Below, one piece after another: positions 2,950 through 40,812 of a stretch of DNA of 40,812 nucleotides. The DNA comes from a virus (Duplodnaviria > Heunggongvirae > Uroviricota > Caudoviricetes). The stretch is taken from IMG/VR virus record IMGVR_UViG_2541047766_000005, one strand, 5' to 3'. The notes under the pieces were generated by a model, which was given only the letters and a program-made list of their open reading frames with translations, was not told the DNA's origin and searched no databases. The stretch's first letter is position 1. The number at the start of each line of letters is the position of its first letter. The translations under genes and the position numbers were made by a program.

Positions 2950-3402
2950 TTAAGCGGCGTCGGTGAATTCAAATAAAAAACCGGCTTGCGCCGGCTCTCT
3001 CATCTTTCTGTCTACCCATGCTGATATCGATGGCGGATGCACCTTTTCAATAGCAGCGCGAAGTACAGCTGTACGTGCCAGTTTGTCGGTAATCTCAGGA
3101 AATCGCTTCTCTGTCTTCGGTACGTTAACAGCAACATTAGTAGAATCCGCACTGGCGAACGGATACATACCAAGAACTCTCACGTCGAGCATTCGAAGAC
3201 CATGAATTTTCACTTTCAAATTACGATTGATATAAATCTCAGTAAAAACTTCATCCATTCTCTGTTCCCACCATTTAGAGCGTATGTGCCTGTGTGGGCC
3301 GCAGCATCCAATCGCCACCCATTCAAATTTTCCAGAAAGGCGTAAAAGACGTTCAATTGATTCGTCGTATGCCAGACCGGAACCGCTTTTGATTTTAGCC
3401 AA
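2950..3402 (-). CDS. Hypothetical protein (possible C-terminal portion of the frameshifted gene, or spurious)
   Basis: 150-aa ORF overlapping 3216-3402 of the upstream ORF in a different frame; its 3' end contains a terminator-like hairpin (2981-2995) plus T-tract on the minus strand. Confidence 0.35.
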   Translation of the reverse strand: MAKIKSGSGLAYDESIERLLRLSGKFEWVAIGCCGPHRHIRSKWWEQRMDEVFTEIYINRNLKVKIHGLRMLDVRVLGMYPFASADSTNVAVNVPKTEKRFPEITDKLARTAVLRAAIEKVHPPSISAWVDRKMREPAQAGFLFEFTDAA

Positions 3403-3807: not shown

Positions 3808-4089
3808 TTAATCATCTATATGTTTTGTACAGAGAGGGCAAGTATCGTTTCCACCGTACTCGTGATAATAATTTTGCACGGTATCAGTCATTTCTCGCAC
3901 ATTGCAGAATGGGGATTTGTCTTCATTAGACTTATAAACCTTCATGGAATATTTGTATGCCGACTCTATATCTATACCTTCATCTACATAAACACCTTCG
4001 TGATGTCTGCATGGAGACAAGACACCGGATCTGCACAACATTGATAACGCCCAATCTTTTTGCTCAGACTCTAACTCATTGATACTCAT
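3808..4089 (-). CDS. Hypothetical Cys-containing small protein
   Basis: 93-aa ORF with AAGGAG Shine-Dalgarno 8 nt upstream of ATG; several Cys pairs (possible metal binding). Confidence 0.55.
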   Translation of the reverse strand: MSINELESEQKDWALSMLCRSGVLSPCRHHEGVYVDEGIDIESAYKYSMKVYKSNEDKSPFCNVREMTDTVQNYYHEYGGNDTCPLCTKHIDD

Positions 4090-4291: not shown

Positions 4292-4843
4292 TCACTCTCC
4301 TTTGATGCGAATGCCTGTTGCAATGCTGTTTATGATGCTGTCAGTGCATGGGGTAGAAAGCTGGGCATCTCCAGCAATTTTCATGACCTCAACATCTGCA
4401 TATCGAATACCGAGGTGTATCAGACCGGCTATACCTGACTTAAGCCGAGCATTTTCCATAAACAGATCCTTTGCCCGCTGTTTTTCTGCCTCAAGCTCAA
4501 CGCGCAGCCTCCCAACCGTAAGCGCAATCTCCTCGTTCTCCTGGTCGCGGCGTTTGATGTACTGCTGGTTTCTTTCCCGTTCATCCAGTAGTGTCAGCAC
4601 GGTAGCCGGATTGGCTGCAGCGATGAATTCAGCATTGGCCTGCTGTTCCATTTGGAAATCTTCATCGAAACCGCTTTCAGGATGCGCTCCTTCAATTCTG
4701 CAAATGGGAATATATCCAGCAGCCTCGCGATGAATTAGCGCATCATCACCATCAAATCGGCCCTCTCCATATTCGAGCGACCACTCGCCACACGTTGCTT
4801 TTTCTGCCTTAGCACGCAGTGCCTGATAATCAATCTTGCTCAC
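4292..4843 (-). CDS. Ead/Ea22-like early protein
   Basis: 183-aa ORF; N-terminus (S)[19 protein letters not shown] resembles the Ead/Ea22 family of lambdoid phages; GTG start 6 nt after GGAGG. Confidence 0.6.
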   Translation of the reverse strand: MSKIDYQALRAKAEKATCGEWSLEYGEGRFDGDDALIHREAAGYIPICRIEGAHPESGFDEDFQMEQQANAEFIAAANPATVLTLLDERERNQQYIKRRDQENEEIALTVGRLRVELEAEKQRAKDLFMENARLKSGIAGLIHLGIRYADVEVMKIAGDAQLSTPCTDSIINSIATGIRIKGE

Positions 4844-12123: not shown

Positions 12124-12931
12124 GTTAGCTGATTACAGGCCTCAACTGGAGGTCGTGGAGCATCGCTTGGCAGATACCGAAGATGGTTTCATGCGCGTTG
12201 CTAACGAGATTACCGACAGTCTGCTGATGGCTGATTTAACCGTCCGGCAGTTGAAGGTGATGCTCGCTATCATGCGCAAGACATACGGATTCAATAAGCC
12301 GATGGATCGACTCACAAACACGCAGATAGCAGCCATGACAGGTATTCATCACACTCATGTTTGCGCTGCCAAGCGCCAGCTTATTGAGCGTAAATTCCTC
12401 ATTGCTGATGGCGTGAAAATCGGAGTGAACAAGGTGGTTTCTCAGTGGATTAGCCAGGACAGCTTAAAATTAGCTAAAACAGCTAATAAAACATTAGCTA
12501 AGTCGGCTAATGGGTATAAGCCAAGTCAGCTAAACACAAAAGACAATATACAAAAGACAATAAATACAAATACCCCCTTACCCCCTAACGGGGGCGGCGA
12601 TGGGCAGGTTAAACCTGAACGTCGCAAGGCAGAACGAATCGACTACGAATCCTTCCTGAACGCCTACAACACCGAAGTCGGTGACAGACTTCCACATGCT
12701 GTTGCGGTCAACGAGAAACGCAAACGCCGCCTGAAGAAAATCATCCCGCAACTGAAAACGCCAAACGTGGACGGTTTCAGAGCGTATGTCAGGGCGTTTG
12801 TGCATCAGGCCAAGCCGTTTTACTTCGGAGACAACGACACGGGCTGGACGGCCGATTTTGATTACCTGCTGAGAGAAGATTCGTTAACGGGAGTTCGTGA
12901 AGGGAAGTTTGCAGACAGGGGGATTGCATGA
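12110..12931 (+). CDS. Replication initiator (O-like replisome organiser)
   Basis: 273-aa ORF in the lambda O position with AGGAG SD; contains internal iteron/AT-rich ori-like segment. Confidence 0.75.
12460..12565. repeat. Putative replication origin inside the O-like gene: AGCTAA iterons plus AT-rich tandem repeat
   Basis: AGCTAA/GGCTAA repeated at 12472, 12481, 12496, 12505, 12528; CAAAAGACAATA direct repeat at 12537-12548 and 12551-12562. Confidence 0.5.
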
Positions 12932-14304
12932 GGCAGGATATCGAAGCGAGCGTTATCGGTGGCCTGCTGATTGGTGGATTAACTCCAACCGCCAGTGACG
13001 TTCTGGCAATGCTGGAGCCGGAAGCGTTTTCAATTCCGCTCTACCGGAAAGCCTTCGAAGTTATCCGGAAGCAGGCGAGAAACAGAAACCTAATCGACGC
13101 GCTGATGGTTGCCGAGGCGTGCGGAGAGGAGAATTTCACGTCAATCCTGATGACCAGCAAAAACTGTCCGAGTGCCGCAAACCTGAAGGGATATGCCGGA
13201 ATGGTCGCGGATAACTATCACCGCCGTCTGGTGCTGGAAATCATGGATGAAATGCGCGAACCAATTCAGAGCGGAACCATCGACGCATCGAGTCAGGCGA
13301 TGGATGAGCTTGTAAATCGTCTTTCAGCCATCAGAAAACCCCGTGACGAGGTTAAACCTGTACGGTTAGGGGAAATCATCACCGACTACACTGACACGCT
13401 TGACAGGCGTCTGAGGAACGGAGAAGAGTCAGATACCCTGAAGACCGGAATCGAAGAACTTGATGCCATCACCGGAGGGATGAACGCGGAAGACCTGGTG
13501 ATAATCGCTGCTCGTCCTGGTATGGGTAAAACCGAACTGGCGCTGAAGATTGCCGAAGGCGTTGCAAGCCGCGTTATTCCCGGTTCTGACGTCCGGCGCG
13601 GAGTGTTGATTTTCTCGATGGAAATGAGCGCATTGCAGATTGCAGAGCGAAGCATTGCCAACGCCGGGAGGATGTCGGTTAGCGTGCTGCGAAACCCTGC
13701 ATCGATGGATGACGAAGGCTGGGCGCGTGTTGCTAACGGCATGAGTCAGCTTGCAGATTTGGATGTATGGGTAGTCGATGCCTCGCGGTTATCGGTCGAA
13801 GAAATTCGCTCAATCGCAGAACGGCACAAACAGGAAAATCCAAACCTGTCACTCATCATGGCGGATTATCTTGGCCTGATTGAGAAGCCGAAAGCAGATC
13901 GCAACGACCTCGCAATTGCTCACATCTCCGGAAGTCTAAAAGCGATGGCGAAAGACCTGAAAACGCCTGTTATCTCCCTAAGTCAGCTTTCGCGCGATGT
14001 TGAGAAGCGACCAAACAAACGCCCGACAAACGCAGATTTGCGTGATTCTGGAAGCATTGAACAGGACGCAGACTCAATCATCATGCTCTATCGGGAAGCG
14101 GTATATGACGAGAACAGTAGCGCCGCGCCATTTGCTGAAATCATTGTGACGAAAAACCGTTTTGGCTCGCTTGGTACGGTTTACCAGCGGTTCTGCAACG
14201 GACACTTTGTTGCATGTGACCAGGACGAAGCCAGACAGATTTGCACAGCATCAAATGCACCTGCTGCGCGTGGCAGACGATATGCACAAGGGGCTGACGT
14301 ATGA
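12928..14304 (+). CDS. DnaB-like replicative helicase
   Basis: 458-aa ORF with Walker A ([10 protein letters not shown]) and DnaB-family C-terminal domain; follows the O-like gene with 4-nt overlap. Confidence 0.85.
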
Positions 14305-14330
14305 CCATCTACATCACTGAGCTAATAACA

Positions 14331-14359
14331 GGGGCTATTTACACAGTAGCCCTTTTTTA
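14331..14359 (+). terminator. Intrinsic terminator after the replication genes (tR2-like position)
   Basis: GGGCTA-TTTACACAG-TAGCCC hairpin followed by TTTTTT. Confidence 0.6.
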
Positions 14360-14387
14360 TTGGATTAAGAGCGAGGGGTAAGTACCG

Positions 14388-14570
14388 ATGGTAAATGCAT
14401 TTATTTGTAGTTTATTTCTTGTCGCGATTTTTCATGGATTCCTTCTGATGATGAGTTTTGTTCTCTGGAATAATGGATATCGCATATTGGGAGTAGGTTT
14501 TGTTTTACGGTTTTCAGTCCTCTGCGCGTTGCTACCGATAATTATGGCGACTATCAAATATTATTGGTGA
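14388..14570 (+). CDS. Small hydrophobic membrane peptide (AT-rich moron candidate)
   Basis: 60-aa ORF, two predicted transmembrane segments, GAGGGG SD 9 nt upstream, markedly AT-rich relative to flanks. Confidence 0.4.
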   Translation: MVNAFICSLFLVAIFHGFLLMMSFVLWNNGYRILGVGFVLRFSVLCALLPIIMATIKYYW

Positions 14571-14585
14571 CCCAAAAAATCATCG

Positions 14586-14936
14586 ATGGAGAGTGATATG
14601 GACGAATCAAGAAAGCAGTTTGAAAAAAGTTGGTTGCGACGTGGAGGCGAATCTTCAGACCTTATCCGTTACCCTGAAAATCACCATGAAATTGGCAGCG
14701 GTAATATTGGTGGTCAATACGTGATGAACGATGTTCAAGGCCACTGGCAAACGTGGCAGGCATCGCGAGCAGCTTTTGAACTGGATATCGACTGGCCCGA
14801 ATCGAATGACGACTTTTGGAAAGATGGTGAAGAAGGTGCTTATGCGATGGGTTATGAGGATGGGCGTGACAAAACGATAATTGCAGTAATGAAAGCTATC
14901 AGAGCCGCTGGAATTAAAGAGAAGAATTTTCGATGA
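14586..14936 (+). CDS. Hypothetical nin-region protein
   Basis: 116-aa ORF with GGAGAG SD (alternative start 14598); precedes ninB with overlap. Confidence 0.55.
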   Translation: MESDMDESRKQFEKSWLRRGGESSDLIRYPENHHEIGSGNIGGQYVMNDVQGHWQTWQASRAAFELDIDWPESNDDFWKDGEEGAYAMGYEDGRDKTIIAVMKAIRAAGIKEKNFR

Positions 14937-15343
14937 AGCAAACAATCTTCCTCCGAACTAAGCAACAACAGCAAGCTGCAATAAATGCCATCCTCGCAAC
15001 ACCACTCGATAAAGACAAGCCAGTCACCATCCGCATTACTGACTACAAGCGCAACCTTGACCAGAACGCAAAATTTCACGCGATGGTCGCAGATATCGCT
15101 CGTCAGGTTCAATGGTGCGGCAAATGGTTAAAACCGGAACAATGGAAGGTTTTGTTGATTAGCGGTCATGCAGTGGCAACAAACCTGGAAACTGATGTTT
15201 TGCCCGGGCTTGAAGGCGAATACGTCAACATTCGCGAAAGCAGCGCGCAGATGAGCGTGAAGCGCATGGCAAGTCTGATCGAGTACACAACAGCCTGGGC
15301 TATTGGTCAGGGTGTCAGATTTACCGACAGGAGGTACGAATGA
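14933..15343 (+). CDS. ninB: NinB (Orf-family recombination mediator)
   Basis: 136-aa ORF; ...[27 protein letters not shown]... resembles lambda NinB. Confidence 0.8.
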
Positions 15344-21156: not shown

Positions 21157-22062
21157 TTAACTGATATATCCATGAGCTTTGAGATAATTTTCTGCAATAA
21201 TCATACCTACTGGATTGATGACTAGTGAGTCAAGTTCTGTAAGGGTTGAAATACCAAAAGAGTCGAGAACTAATTTTGTAGCTGGGAATGCTTCATAAAA
21301 TGATGCATCAGATGTAAGAGTGTCATAACCCGTTCTTTTTGATAATAACTCTAAGTAATTGATATTATATATTTTATCTGAGAAAAATACGCCTTTAATT
21401 TCTAATAGCTGCTGATTTAGGCGTTTGAGGGTGAAATGTTCTCCAAGAAATTTTATATAATCTGTTTCATAAACAGCATACATTGACCTATGGATCATGT
21501 AATTTTCTTCCAAGGAAATGTTAGGTAGTGAAAAATGAGTACTTTTTTTCTCTGCAAGTTCTGTGATATTTATACTTCCTACCATCTTATTGATTGAACG
21601 TAAAAAATATACAAATGCCAAAAACTTAATATCATTAGTGGTCAGTCTGGATGTTGTATCTAACGCTTGATCGATCAAAATGCTTTGGTCTTCTTGATCG
21701 TTTTCAATTTTAGTAACTATTAACTCCTTAAGAAGTTCTGATTTTGCATCAAACCCCTTTCTTGCGACCTGAACGACTGCTTGATTGAGGGTGTACTGAA
21801 TATCGGGATCAGCGAGTTTTGCTCTTAGTTTTTCATCAACATCTTTAGATAGTTTTTCTGCAATTTGGTGACCAAATTCTTGAGCCCGTGAGTCGACTAA
21901 AGCGAATGCATCTTCACGAAGCGAAGCCATTTCACTTTTGACCATTAACTGGCAAATAGCCATGACCTCAGTAGTGGTGTTGCCAAAGTAGGCATCACCG
22001 GTAACTTGTATAGCTGAGGAGTTATCACCCACACTTTGACCGGATTTCTCGAATAAGCTCAT
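21157..22062 (-). CDS. Unknown-function 301-aa protein of an AT-rich antisense accessory cassette (candidate defence/exclusion effector)
   Basis: Long ORF in strongly AT-rich DNA, opposite to the late operon, between lysis module and terminase; ATGA overlap with upstream small membrane gene; no P-loop, HEPN or other motif I can recognise. Confidence 0.7.
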   Translation of the reverse strand: MSLFEKSGQSVGDNSSAIQVTGDAYFGNTTTEVMAICQLMVKSEMASLREDAFALVDSRAQEFGHQIAEKLSKDVDEKLRAKLADPDIQYTLNQAVVQVARKGFDAKSELLKELIVTKIENDQEDQSILIDQALDTTSRLTTNDIKFLAFVYFLRSINKMVGSINITELAEKKSTHFSLPNISLEENYMIHRSMYAVYETDYIKFLGEHFTLKRLNQQLLEIKGVFFSDKIYNINYLELLSKRTGYDTLTSDASFYEAFPATKLVLDSFGISTLTELDSLVINPVGMIIAENYLKAHGYIS

Positions 22063-22304
22063 TCTTTGTCCCTTTCATTAATAGTTATGTTGCCACCAAT
22101 TTGTATACCGCTAGAGTTATCGCCGATTGTTTGGCTAACACCTTGCTCTTTAGCTTTGTTGCTTTTTAGATTTGCTAAGGCTGTTAGAAAAACGACCAAA
22201 CTCGCTAATGCTGCTAGCGCTGTGGATAATGTTTGACTGGTTATGGCTTGATAGCCAAAGCCTAAAGCCGAACAAAAAGATACAAATACGATTAATTTTC
22301 TCAC
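22059..22304 (-). CDS. Small membrane protein of the same accessory cassette
   Basis: GTG start at 22304 6 nt after GGAG (track ORF starts at ATG 22361 inside the terS start region); two hydrophobic segments; C-terminal GDNSSGIQIGGN motif echoed at the N-terminus of the 301-aa partner. Confidence 0.6.
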   Translation of the reverse strand: MRKLIVFVSFCSALGFGYQAITSQTLSTALAALASLVVFLTALANLKSNKAKEQGVSQTIGDNSSGIQIGGNITINERDKE

Positions 22305-38070: not shown

Positions 38071-39537
38071 TTAATTGCAGTTGAATGTAATGTTTTTATC
38101 GTAAACAAAAATCTTCTTATCTCCGACGTCAATAACCTTTGATGGATTACCAATCTCTTTAATTGTTATATTTCTCATAACCTCGTCATCTGTAATTATG
38201 AAATTTCCTCCGCGCTCATACCAATAGTTTTTTGACAACCATTTATTGCATGCAAGTATATTCAAACCTCGGTTTACATCAATCGGAGCAATTGATATGT
38301 CTCCATCTATACTTGCTGATGAAGCAAACCAGAAAGATGCATACCCGTTTGTGAGGTTATTCTGCCTTACAGTGTGTTTTATCTGATTTATAATATCATT
38401 AGAATTGTCTTTTTTTTCATGCATATAAATAGAACAAAAGAGAATAAATGTTGTAACAACCCCTAATGCGATGAATTTCCACCCTCTGGAGTTGTTAGAT
38501 CTGCCAATAACAACAGGTGCTAGTATAAAAAATGGAACGATATATCTTATAGTCCATTCATCTATTGGACGGTTACTTGCAAGGTATGCTGGTATCATTA
38601 TAATACAAGCTATACATATAGCCATATTGATCATGGAGGTAAAGAATATTTCCTTTACTGACATTGCAACTAATATAAGAAGTAAAATCATTACAACAAA
38701 ACAAAAAACAGAAATAAGCGCTGTAATATCAGAAGGTGGCTTGCCAAAGAAGAAAGCTCCACTGTATAGGAGGAATCCTTTTACGAATAAGTATAAATTA
38801 TTCAGGATATCATCAAATGCAACAAATGTTGGATCTGGAACGCCTGGCAAAATGTACCAGTTATGAGCTCTTGCGTACATGGTCATAATTTTTGATGCAA
38901 CATATGCAAATATAGTTGCAACTAGTATGATCAGATTTTTTTGGCTTTTGGTTTTTACTATAAAAATCACTGATGATATTGCTACTGGTGCAATAATGAG
39001 TAGCTTTATGATGTCATCACTGAAACAAGCTAGAGCTAACACTAAAATATAAAGAGATAGAGAAATTAACGATCTTGTTTTGGAAAAATTGTCTAACATT
39101 ATGAAGCAAAACAACATGGATACATATGTGCCGACATGTATCACAGGTATTAATACGTTTAATACTGCAAACCCAGAAGGCAGCGCAACGCAAAATGAAA
39201 TGGCCCATAACGATGAAAGCCTTTCTTTTGAAAGATAAAATGTCATCAATGTAACCATTGAATACATAATTGCCGGTATGCAGTATGCTTGGTACTGTCC
39301 GTACCAGAATACCTTTGAAGCAAGCCCGTACCATATTATGTCTGTAAAATAGAATGATACTGTAGAGAGATACCATCCACTAAGCGTCCAATTTCCGTCC
39401 GCAATGTCCTTACCCTCAAGAAGTCCAGAAACAGCATCCGAACTTGGCAAAATCTGTTTTGAAATCGAGGCGTAGAAGAAAGTCAGGAATATAAATCCAA
39501 TGATGTATATGGCTGTTTTTTTTATATTTAAAGTCAT
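38071..39537 (-). CDS. Serotype-specific O-antigen glucosyltransferase (GtrC-type polytopic membrane protein)
   Basis: 488-aa multi-pass membrane ORF, very AT-rich, immediately downstream of gtrB in the gtr operon. Confidence 0.75.
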   Translation of the reverse strand: MTLNIKKTAIYIIGFIFLTFFYASISKQILPSSDAVSGLLEGKDIADGNWTLSGWYLSTVSFYFTDIIWYGLASKVFWYGQYQAYCIPAIMYSMVTLMTFYLSKERLSSLWAISFCVALPSGFAVLNVLIPVIHVGTYVSMLFCFIMLDNFSKTRSLISLSLYILVLALACFSDDIIKLLIIAPVAISSVIFIVKTKSQKNLIILVATIFAYVASKIMTMYARAHNWYILPGVPDPTFVAFDDILNNLYLFVKGFLLYSGAFFFGKPPSDITALISVFCFVVMILLLILVAMSVKEIFFTSMINMAICIACIIMIPAYLASNRPIDEWTIRYIVPFFILAPVVIGRSNNSRGWKFIALGVVTTFILFCSIYMHEKKDNSNDIINQIKHTVRQNNLTNGYASFWFASSASIDGDISIAPIDVNRGLNILACNKWLSKNYWYERGGNFIITDDEVMRNITIKEIGNPSKVIDVGDKKIFVYDKNITFNCN

Positions 39538-39538
39538 T

Positions 39539-40453
39539 TTACTTATCCTTTAGAATGTATCTTGGTCGCTGCTTAACTTCAACATAAATTCTTCCTATAT
39601 ACTCTCCAAGAACTCCTATGCCTATTAACTGAACTCCACCAAGAAACAATATTGATACAATGATAGAAGGGTAACCTGGAACACTATTTCCAAACATCAA
39701 TTTATCAGCAATCATCCATGCTCCATAAAGGAATGATAAGGTTGCCACAAACAGGCCTATATAAGTCCACATGCGCAAAGGGAAAGTAGAAAAGCTAGTG
39801 ATCCCTTCCAGCGCCAAGTTCCATAGCTTCCATCCATTGAACTTTGTGCTTCCTGCAACGCGTTCTGCTCGCGCATATTCTACGACATCGGTTCGACCAC
39901 CAACCCAGCTCAGCACACCCTTCATAAACAGGTTTCGTTCTGGCATGAGCTTAATGTTTTCTACTACTTCGCGAGACATGAGCCGGAAGTCGCCAACATT
40001 CTCTTCTATCTGAGGGTTGCTGATTTTGTTATGAAGTTTATAGAACCACTCAGCAGATTTACGCTTCAGCCTGCTGTCAGTGGAGCGGTCAGAGCGTTTA
40101 GCCAGAACCATATCTGCACCGGCCTGCCATTTCTCTATCAAGTGAGGAATAACTTCTATAGGGTCTTGCAGATCAACGTCAATCGGGATAATTGCCTCCC
40201 CGGTAGCATGGTCCAGACCTGCGAACAGGGCAGGTTCTTTGCCGAAGTTACGTGTGAACGACAGCGAAACCACAAGCGGGTCGGCAACAGCAAGCTCGTT
40301 GATAATTGATTCTGTAGCGTCTTTGCTGCCATCGTTTATGAAGACTATCTCGACTTCATGCTGCTGAAGCCCTTCAAATTCGCGCACGGTTTTATAAAAA
40401 ATAGGTATCGTGGCCTCTTCGTTAAAGACCGGAACGACTAAAGAAATTTTCAT
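39539..40453 (-). CDS. gtrB: Bactoprenol glucosyltransferase GtrB (GT2 family)
   Basis: 304-aa ORF with GT2 N-terminal domain (VVPVFNEE...DGSKD) and two C-terminal transmembrane helices. Confidence 0.9.
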
Positions 40454-40812
40454 TTCGCATCCCTAAAGACAATGAACTTTGAATAGACGAAACCGCACAC
40501 CAGGCTGATGGCGGAGAAGGTGACAAGAGTTATCATCGGAGGAAGTGCGCATCTATCAGCAGCCCATCCAACAGTAGCACTCAGTGTTCCCATGAACCCG
40601 ACATATAACATGTAGCGCATCGTTGTAGTTGATGCTTTGAATGTGAATTTTGCATTCGCGAAGAAGCTAAAACTCACAGCCACAACGAAACCTGCGAAGT
40701 TTGCCAGAGCCTGATTGGTATGCGCGGCATAGATACATACACCAAAAACCACCCAGTGTATAAGTGTGTTCAGCACACCAATCGAGGTGTACCTTGCAAA
40801 TATATTTAACAT
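40450..40812 (-). CDS. gtrA: GtrA flippase (bactoprenol-glucose translocase)
   Basis: 120-aa four-helix membrane ORF matching GtrA of serotype-converting phages; start codon at the last three bases of the window. Confidence 0.88.

Follow-up and report, generated by a model that had tools for sequence, protein, structure and literature searches.

Past their replication genes, lambdoid phages carry a highly mosaic set of genes, among them the nin genes and, in lambda, ren, which directly follows the replication genes. These genes are expressed from behind a tR2-type terminator, the read-through of which is supplied in lambdoid phages by N-type antitermination. Here we analyze a small gene that has the same position and, to judge by its arrangement, the same mode of expression, and that is homologous neither to ren nor to any of the named nin genes. 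It lies in a stretch of 40,812 nucleotides of DNA (IMG/VR record IMGVR_UViG_2541047766_000005; this whole stretch is hereafter called the window) that represents a nearly complete prophage of E. coli, P22-like and of Lederbergvirus type. The gene is an open reading frame (ORF) of 60 codons between the gene for a DnaB-type replicative helicase and ninB (Table 1), and the sequence of its 60-amino acid (aa) product is MVNAFICSLFLVAIFHGFLLMMSFVLWNNGYRILGVGFVLRFSVLCALLPIIMATIKYYW.

An earlier note on this DNA had described a short ORF with a good ribosome-binding site directly past the terminator of the replication module, in DNA richer in AT than its surroundings, and had read the product as a hydrophobic peptide with two membrane segments. 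Each of these features held up in our analysis. The helicase gene is the last of the replication module, and it is followed by an intrinsic terminator with a stem at 14330-14354 and a T-run to 14358; the fold of 14318-14365 has a free energy (dG) of -17.4 kcal/mol (z = -4.4), which none of 200 shuffled sequences equalled. Some 30-33 nt separate this terminator from the ATG, which is preceded by the Shine-Dalgarno (SD) sequence GAGGGG. The GC content is 0.36 in the ORF versus about 0.49 in the 3 kb of flanks. The product has a grand average of hydropathy (GRAVY) of 1.52, and AlphaFold2 (AF2) models it as two helices, at residues 2-26 and 30-59.

We consider it very probable that this is a real gene, that it belongs to a phage early operon, and that it encodes a membrane hairpin. 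With less assurance, we favor the view that the product is a delayed-early, accessory inner-membrane protein of helical-hairpin form that acts through a conserved loop, rather than a type I toxin. Judged by sequence, its family is new and recognized by no family library so far. The kind of gene is familiar, namely a small accessory membrane protein within the mosaic nin region.

A conserved reading frame and its protein family

The stretch that we queried is 100% identical to prophages of strain ST3 and others, in which the annotation runs from the integrase to the tailspike and gtr genes. RefSeq leaves empty the 294 nt between the DnaB-type helicase gene and a gene for a 112-aa hypothetical protein, and the 60-codon ORF lies inside this gap. 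The Prokaryotic Genome Annotation Pipeline (PGAP) calls no gene at the ORF in the three E. coli genomes examined, and the reference strains LF82 and O26:H11 11368 carry it unannotated in RefSeq. It is also missing from the annotation of phage Gally, the only one of 50,697 phage records to contain the gene (lambda, P22 and HK97 are without it). The missing calls by PGAP and in the Gally record speak against a real gene, and they would fit a spurious ORF, a piece of non-coding AT-rich spacer or regulatory DNA that is open by accident. The open frame alone is not significant, since about 2% of shuffles of the ORF's 180 nt remain open and ORFs of 60 aa or more number 156 in the window. PGAP does call the homologue from Serratia, and a few GenBank submissions list the peptide as 'hypothetical protein' (DAE59226.1, GCK97410.1 and EFN7228125.1).

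We assembled an E. coli-clade sample of 60 loci from E. coli genomes, IMG/VR, Logan assemblies and metagenomes. The earlier note had named conservation of the frame in related prophages as a check, and the frame is intact at all 60 of these loci, across 17 DNA alleles and 15 protein variants; the stop codon, where it changes, goes from TGA to TAA and is never lost, and the GAGGGG sequence is kept in every allele. The probability of finding no new stops within the clade is about 0.3. Pairwise ratios of non-synonymous to synonymous substitution rates (dN/dS) are 0.65-0.96 on only 8-18 differences and are indistinguishable from neutrality, a second point that weighs against us and that a spurious ORF would share. 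The coding signal thus depends on more distant homologues. Within the clade, none of the 11 helix-core replacements is charged, strongly polar or proline (P ~0.02-0.04), and the sole charged replacements (N28K/D and G30E) are located in the turn.

With a profile made from E. coli alleles only, HMMER was run exhaustively over 1.84 billion cluster representatives and matched P0006 (61 aa, E = 3e-9) and P0008, P0009 and P0010 (61-65 aa, E = 6e-5 to 1.5e-4). A further five, P0012, P0013 (Enterobacter cloacae), P0014 (Erwiniaceae bacterium), P0037 and P0038, came from iterated word-indexed searches, a scan of IMG/VR added one further member (L064:3956-4147), and a tblastn search against plasmids added Serratia WP_223501766.1, which is encoded on a 44-kb circular phage-like replicon. 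When the motif described below was back-translated and scanned against 185,579 species-representative genomes, there was exactly one match, in Rosenbergiella gaditana. Scanning the species-representative genomes with E. coli-clade peptides, and IMG/VR with the Enterobacter subgroup, gave no match. The homologues, from Enterobacter, Atlantibacter, Serratia, Rosenbergiella and Erwiniaceae, are 60-65 aa long and 25-49% identical to the window protein.

These homologues carry the argument for coding. They share length, motif and kind of genomic position across five genera, an SD-like sequence lies 5' of every one of the distant members, and hydrophobicity is maintained. P0006 and P0013 are a mere 73% identical in DNA; their 25 synonymous and 25 non-synonymous changes fall on 42 and 141 sites, respectively, which gives a dN/dS of 0.16, and the differences per codon position (14/10/26) are mostly at the third. 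Because a protein family is conserved, the ORF stands above chance. We therefore regard it as established, by comparison of sequences, that the 60-codon ORF is a genuine protein-coding gene, and give an accidentally open frame next to no credence.

Two sets of candidates were rejected. P0007 (229 aa) and P0011 (253 aa) are spurious profile matches, repetitive and of low complexity, that match over several short stretches. The proteins of 73-113 aa that share a 90%-identity cluster with the exact window peptide are not longer isoforms of it; they are the product of the next gene downstream, which is phiTE_015-like. Automated annotation could be misled by this mixture of the 60-aa peptide with an unrelated downstream product, which is an artefact of clustering.

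Across 11 aligned members, S23, F24, W27, N29, L34, G35 and R41 are invariant and M22 and V25 nearly so, which gives the family motif M22-S-F-V-x-W-x-N29 ... L34-G35 ... R41. The Serratia and Rosenbergiella members carry it as well. We define the family by a length of 60-65 aa, two hydrophobic helices and the seven invariant residues, all of which the window protein has, and by a gene that runs with its neighbors in an early operon of a lambdoid or P22-like prophage, as the window gene does. Scans of the window protein and the 11 aligned members against Pfam, PHROGs, NCBIfam and PADLOC returned nothing significant at the default E of 0.001; VMA21 (in a single member, E = 0.006) and phrog_33436 (E = 0.056) came closest. 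A profile search of the Protein Data Bank (PDB) sequences gave only CcmD, at E = 0.12. A literature search found no mention of the peptide and no small membrane protein described for that slot of the nin region. Among 5,426 complete E. coli genomes, 78 have the gene, always on the chromosome and in one copy. As far as these searches see, the family is confined to lambdoid and P22-like prophages of Enterobacterales.

Place in the early operon

At every locus the family gene lies in an early operon of a phage and points the same way as its neighbors. In E. coli, Enterobacter, Erwiniaceae, the IMG/VR member and Rosenbergiella, it lies past the replication genes, in the nin region, as it does in the window. 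Since the adjacent replication genes vary in type (DnaB, DnaC/IstB or primase-helicase), the family is not bound to one replication system. In Atlantibacter hermannii prophages, the gene is part of a leftward operon, 3' of erf, ssb and dam and 5' of xis and int. Start and stop codons of family genes overlap those of their neighbors by 4 nt (ATGA, GTGA) or are separated from them by 6-nt gaps.

A pattern scan of 13900-15100 found no sigma-70-like promoter on either strand, and no terminator was found between 14570 and the next gene. The 60-aa gene thus shows neither a promoter of its own nor the makings of an independent transcription unit, and it would be transcribed as part of the delayed-early rightward (PR) operon. 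Since it stands behind the tR2-like terminator in that operon, its expression would need read-through, presumably by N-type antitermination as in other lambdoid phages. Translation probably starts from its own SD sequence. Membership of an early operon is shown by the arrangement of the genes, from which delayed-early expression is read. In LF82 lysogens, only the repressor of the Gally prophage is transcribed above background, counted per annotated gene, and the 60-aa ORF is unannotated there (PMC9928086); as far as it goes, this transcriptome agrees with a delayed-early gene.

The earlier note had raised a type I toxin for this site and had proposed to look for the antisense promoter on the opposite strand. 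In such a model the peptide would depolarize the membrane, and its translation would be restrained by a cis-encoded antisense RNA. The peptide is indeed small and very hydrophobic, and it falls within the size expected of such toxins (up to about 60 aa). It resembles the type I toxins Hok/Gef, Ldr, TisB, Ibs, ShoB, ZorO and DinQ, and the type V toxin GhoT (57 aa), in size, extreme hydrophobicity and predicted membrane insertion, and GhoT also has two helices. The strict scan found no antisense promoter, and the relaxed scan found one promoter-like site at the 3' end of the ORF, the sole candidate for an antisense RNA, which scored 8/12 on the window sequence and 9/12 on the O26 allele. This weak site tells somewhat against our view, and the hairpin upstream, with its A-rich 5' flank, could also terminate weakly in the antisense direction. 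In all, however, the relaxed scan found five weak sites against 5.8 +/- 2.7 in shuffles, no more than expected by chance, and no antisense promoter was found at the distant homologue loci of Atlantibacter and Enterobacter.

Other evidence points the same way. Rfam gave only a chance snoRNA match on 13800-15200, and no toxin family in Pfam, NCBIfam or PADLOC was matched. Known type I toxins are mostly single-helix proteins with a dedicated transcription unit, whereas the 60-aa gene overlaps or abuts ORFs of an early operon and has no promoter, above-chance antisense signal or family match. Its conservation is centered on a loop motif and not on a pore-lining helix. The toxin suggestion was thus not upheld, and we consider it very improbable. 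On the sequence evidence, the case is a clear negative example: a small hydrophobic ORF behind a terminator need not be a type I toxin.

The earlier note had also named exclusion factors. Composition could suggest a second alternative, a moron or superinfection-exclusion factor that is expressed in the lysogen by repressor-independent transcription and blocks the entry of incoming phage DNA. T4 Imm, P22 SieA and HK97 gp15 are membrane exclusion proteins, and the product of the 60-aa gene is also predicted to be a membrane protein. The gene differs from its neighbors both in GC and in GC at third codon positions (GC3), which is 0.37 in the ORF versus 0.55 in the replication genes; given the low GC3, the low GC of the ORF is not just an effect of hydrophobic codons. 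It also travels as a single-gene mosaic module. Yet it has no promoter upstream, where the gap from terminator to ATG is 33 nt and the gene elsewhere begins 6 nt past a coding ORF, and it has no terminator downstream. With both promoter and terminator missing, a lysogen-expressed moron is unlikely. The silence of Gally in LF82 noted above, with its gene-based limit, points the same way, as does the lack of similarity to Imm, SieA/B or any PADLOC model and of any Pfam or PHROG match. An exclusion role is possible in a lytic-phase form only.

The mosaic module that carries the gene is about 270 nt long. Homology to other prophage contexts starts at 14350 or 14363 and, in several of them, stops at about 14623-14627; the flanking DNA therefore differs on either side. 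Three left contexts were found: at 24 loci the terminator-containing 26-codon ORF seen in the window, at 19 loci a mini-ORF of 13 codons preceded by a second small ORF, and at 17 loci the end of a 106-aa ORF. All three share the same TAA of the upstream ORF, which lies between the SD sequence and the ATG (window 14379-14381; 3020-3022 in locus L004, from O26:H11 11368; 3992-3994 in locus L017). This shared TAA, 6 nt before the ATG, suggests termination-reinitiation, by which translation of the 60-aa gene may be coupled to that of the upstream ORF.

In the window and in L004 (2468-2554) the whole terminator hairpin lies inside an ORF of 26-28 codons that starts on the helicase stop, and the ORF is open in both although the hairpins have different stems (14330-14354 in the window, 2497-2520 in L004). 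Translation of this ORF through the hairpin may modulate termination or couple translation of the helicase to downstream expression. In the window, its ATG overlaps the helicase stop (ATGA) and its TAA ends 6 nt before the ATG of the 60-aa ORF; the HK97 record annotates its counterpart as Gp56.

Other small ORFs occupy the same slot. E. coli O26:H11 11368 has an unannotated two-helix ORF of 61-63 aa there (L004 2778/2784-2969), Rosenbergiella gaditana has two small two-helix ORFs directly upstream of its family member (locus L074, 7410-7562 and 7573-7761, minus strand), and the 106-aa ORF of other E. coli prophages (L017 3674-3994) has an N-terminal hydrophobic segment. None of the slot ORFs from O26, Rosenbergiella and L017 has the family motif.

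Membrane topology and possible action

The constrained segment of the protein runs from the end of helix 1 across the turn and through the first third of helix 2, with the pattern MSFVxWxN-x-[FY]-[KR]-x-LG-x-x-x-x-x-R. Elsewhere in the helices substitution is free so long as the residues remain hydrophobic, which suggests that the helices are mainly anchors. In all 11 members, the loop has two to four Lys/Arg residues, compared with none or one at each terminus. By the positive-inside rule, this enrichment would place the loop in the cytoplasm and both termini in the periplasm, so that the conserved loop is probably exposed on the cytoplasmic face.

Several points weigh against this picture of a loop held out by two anchors. 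The topology is drawn from the positive-inside rule alone, and the AF2 model has only moderate confidence, with a mean predicted local distance difference test (pLDDT) score of 69. Foldseek matched 32 viral structures, each with E > 3, and nothing in the PDB; a hairpin of 60 aa is too simple for a fold search to be informative. Should the AF2 hairpin be correct, the invariant R41 would lie several turns into helix 2, a position that would suit a pore or an oligomer as well as a binding loop. An oligomeric pore, to which an invariant and possibly membrane-embedded R41 points, is therefore kept as a possible alternative. Finally, no partner gene co-varies with the family among the loci compared. 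The phiTE_015-like gene downstream was considered as an obligate partner and rejected: it is the constant right-hand neighbor in the E. coli clade, and outside it was seen only in one Enterobacter-type locus, one gene removed.

Two small hydrophobic helices could also belong to a protein of lysis timing, whether a class II holin, a pinholin or an antiholin, and S21 of phage 21, a class II holin (pinholin), has a similar size of about 60-70 aa and two transmembrane helices. The 60-aa gene, however, is in the early operon and not in the lysis cassette; it lies about 8 kb upstream of that cassette and ahead of the late-gene antiterminator, and the prophage has its own holin, endolysin (lysozyme) and lysis-protein genes. 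Unlike holins of the S21 type, the protein has no charged C-terminal tail, its C terminus being ...TIKYYW with none or one Lys/Arg past helix 2 in the members, and no holin family was matched. On the grounds of position and uncharged C terminus, we treat a holin role as practically excluded.

We return, then, to the hairpin with a conserved loop. Given two anchors and a conserved juxtamembrane element of 15 residues, the simplest view is that the protein is a ligand for another membrane component. During lytic growth, the membrane-tethered loop would bind and modulate some inner-membrane component, whether from the host or from a competing phage, and the role would be accessory and non-essential, for example in host takeover, lytic-phase exclusion or anti-defence. 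That the motif binds a target is a tentative proposal, drawn from the pattern of conservation and from analogy, and this too tempers our reading. A bolder version, which we offer as speculation and think rather unlikely, would make the members of the family early effectors of a new class among phage proteins. On this view, a cytoplasmic loop of about 15 residues (WxN...LG...R) would disable a specific inner-membrane machine, with the DNA-entry route of a superinfecting phage or a membrane-bound abortive-infection effector as candidates. The region past the lambdoid replication genes would then hold a hitherto unnoticed slot for small membrane proteins, and synthesis of this one would be coupled to translation of the upstream mini-ORF, which spans the tR2-like terminator.

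Neighboring features and related systems

Table 1. Features at and around the 60-aa gene, in window coordinates
Feature	Position	Strand	Description and evidence
60-aa gene, two-helix membrane protein	14388-14570	+	ATG to TGA; ORF list, homology searches, AF2 model
Shine-Dalgarno sequence GAGGGG	14373-14378	+	9 nt 5' of the ATG; direct sequence reading
Intrinsic terminator, positional equivalent of lambda tR2	14330-14360	+	10-bp stem, 5-nt loop, U-run; pattern scan and folding
DnaB-type replicative helicase gene, last of the replication module	12928-14304	+	ORF list; PGAP 'replicative DNA helicase' in the identical ST3 prophage
26-codon ORF, HK97 gp56-like	14301-14381	+	ORF list; phrog_5907 match, E = 1.7e-16
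Downstream gene	14598-14936	+	112 aa from the PGAP start, 116 aa from ATG 14586; phrog_343 match; ninB next
Weak antisense promoter-like site TCACCA-18-CATAAT	14541-14570	-	8/12 in relaxed scan
Mosaic module with the 60-aa gene, ~270 nt	14350-14627	+	BLAST coordinates, alignment, upstream contexts

PF26207 (Phage_phiTE_015) is listed in a precomputed table for relatives of the downstream gene; the downstream protein of the window (14586-14936) has no Pfam match in hmmscan, even at E <= 1. Its sequence diverges strongly between prophages past about the ninth codon, and a recombination joint therefore lies inside this gene.

The prophage has other features of interest. At about 21157-22304, two genes on the minus strand run against the late genes around them, in a moron-like placement with the lysis/Rha region on one side and the terminase genes on the other; one is small and hypothetical, and the other bears the RefSeq name 'LPO_1073/Vpar_1526 family protein'. 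RefSeq also annotates, in the identical prophage, a truncated ead/Ea22-like pseudogene that lacks its C terminus and belongs to the leftward early region (about 4424-4843, minus strand). At the end of the prophage, beside the tailspike gene, are GtrA/GtrB-like genes and a third gene (about 38071-40812, minus strand), and these genes suggest that the lysogen modifies its O antigen.

No class of phage gene escapes annotation more often than that of small membrane proteins, and a conserved family with a sharp motif offers a concrete annotation fix. The gene is also a tractable candidate for functional work, since Gally can be induced and establishes lysogeny (PMC9928086). The short list of phage small-protein effectors would grow by this family if its loop motif proves to act on a membrane machine of the host; should no phenotype appear, it would be one more accessory gene.

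Two further kinds of described system come close. The exclusion proteins T4 Imm, P22 SieA and HK97 gp15 are likewise small inner-membrane proteins of phages, accessory and patchily distributed, and they have no sequence or profile similarity to the family. SieA and gp15 are expressed from the prophage, whereas the 60-aa gene gives no sign of prophage expression. T4 Imm is made early in the lytic cycle, as we infer for the 60-aa gene, and not from a lysogen; it is thought to act by binding a membrane component, which would make it an analogue of the 60-aa protein and not a homologue. The other kind comprises the bacterial small membrane-protein regulators MgrB, AcrZ, SafA and MgtS, which are chromosomal, mostly single-helix, and without homology to the family. 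At about 30-65 aa, they consist of little beyond membrane helices and bind a larger inner-membrane protein, and this is our working model for the 60-aa protein.

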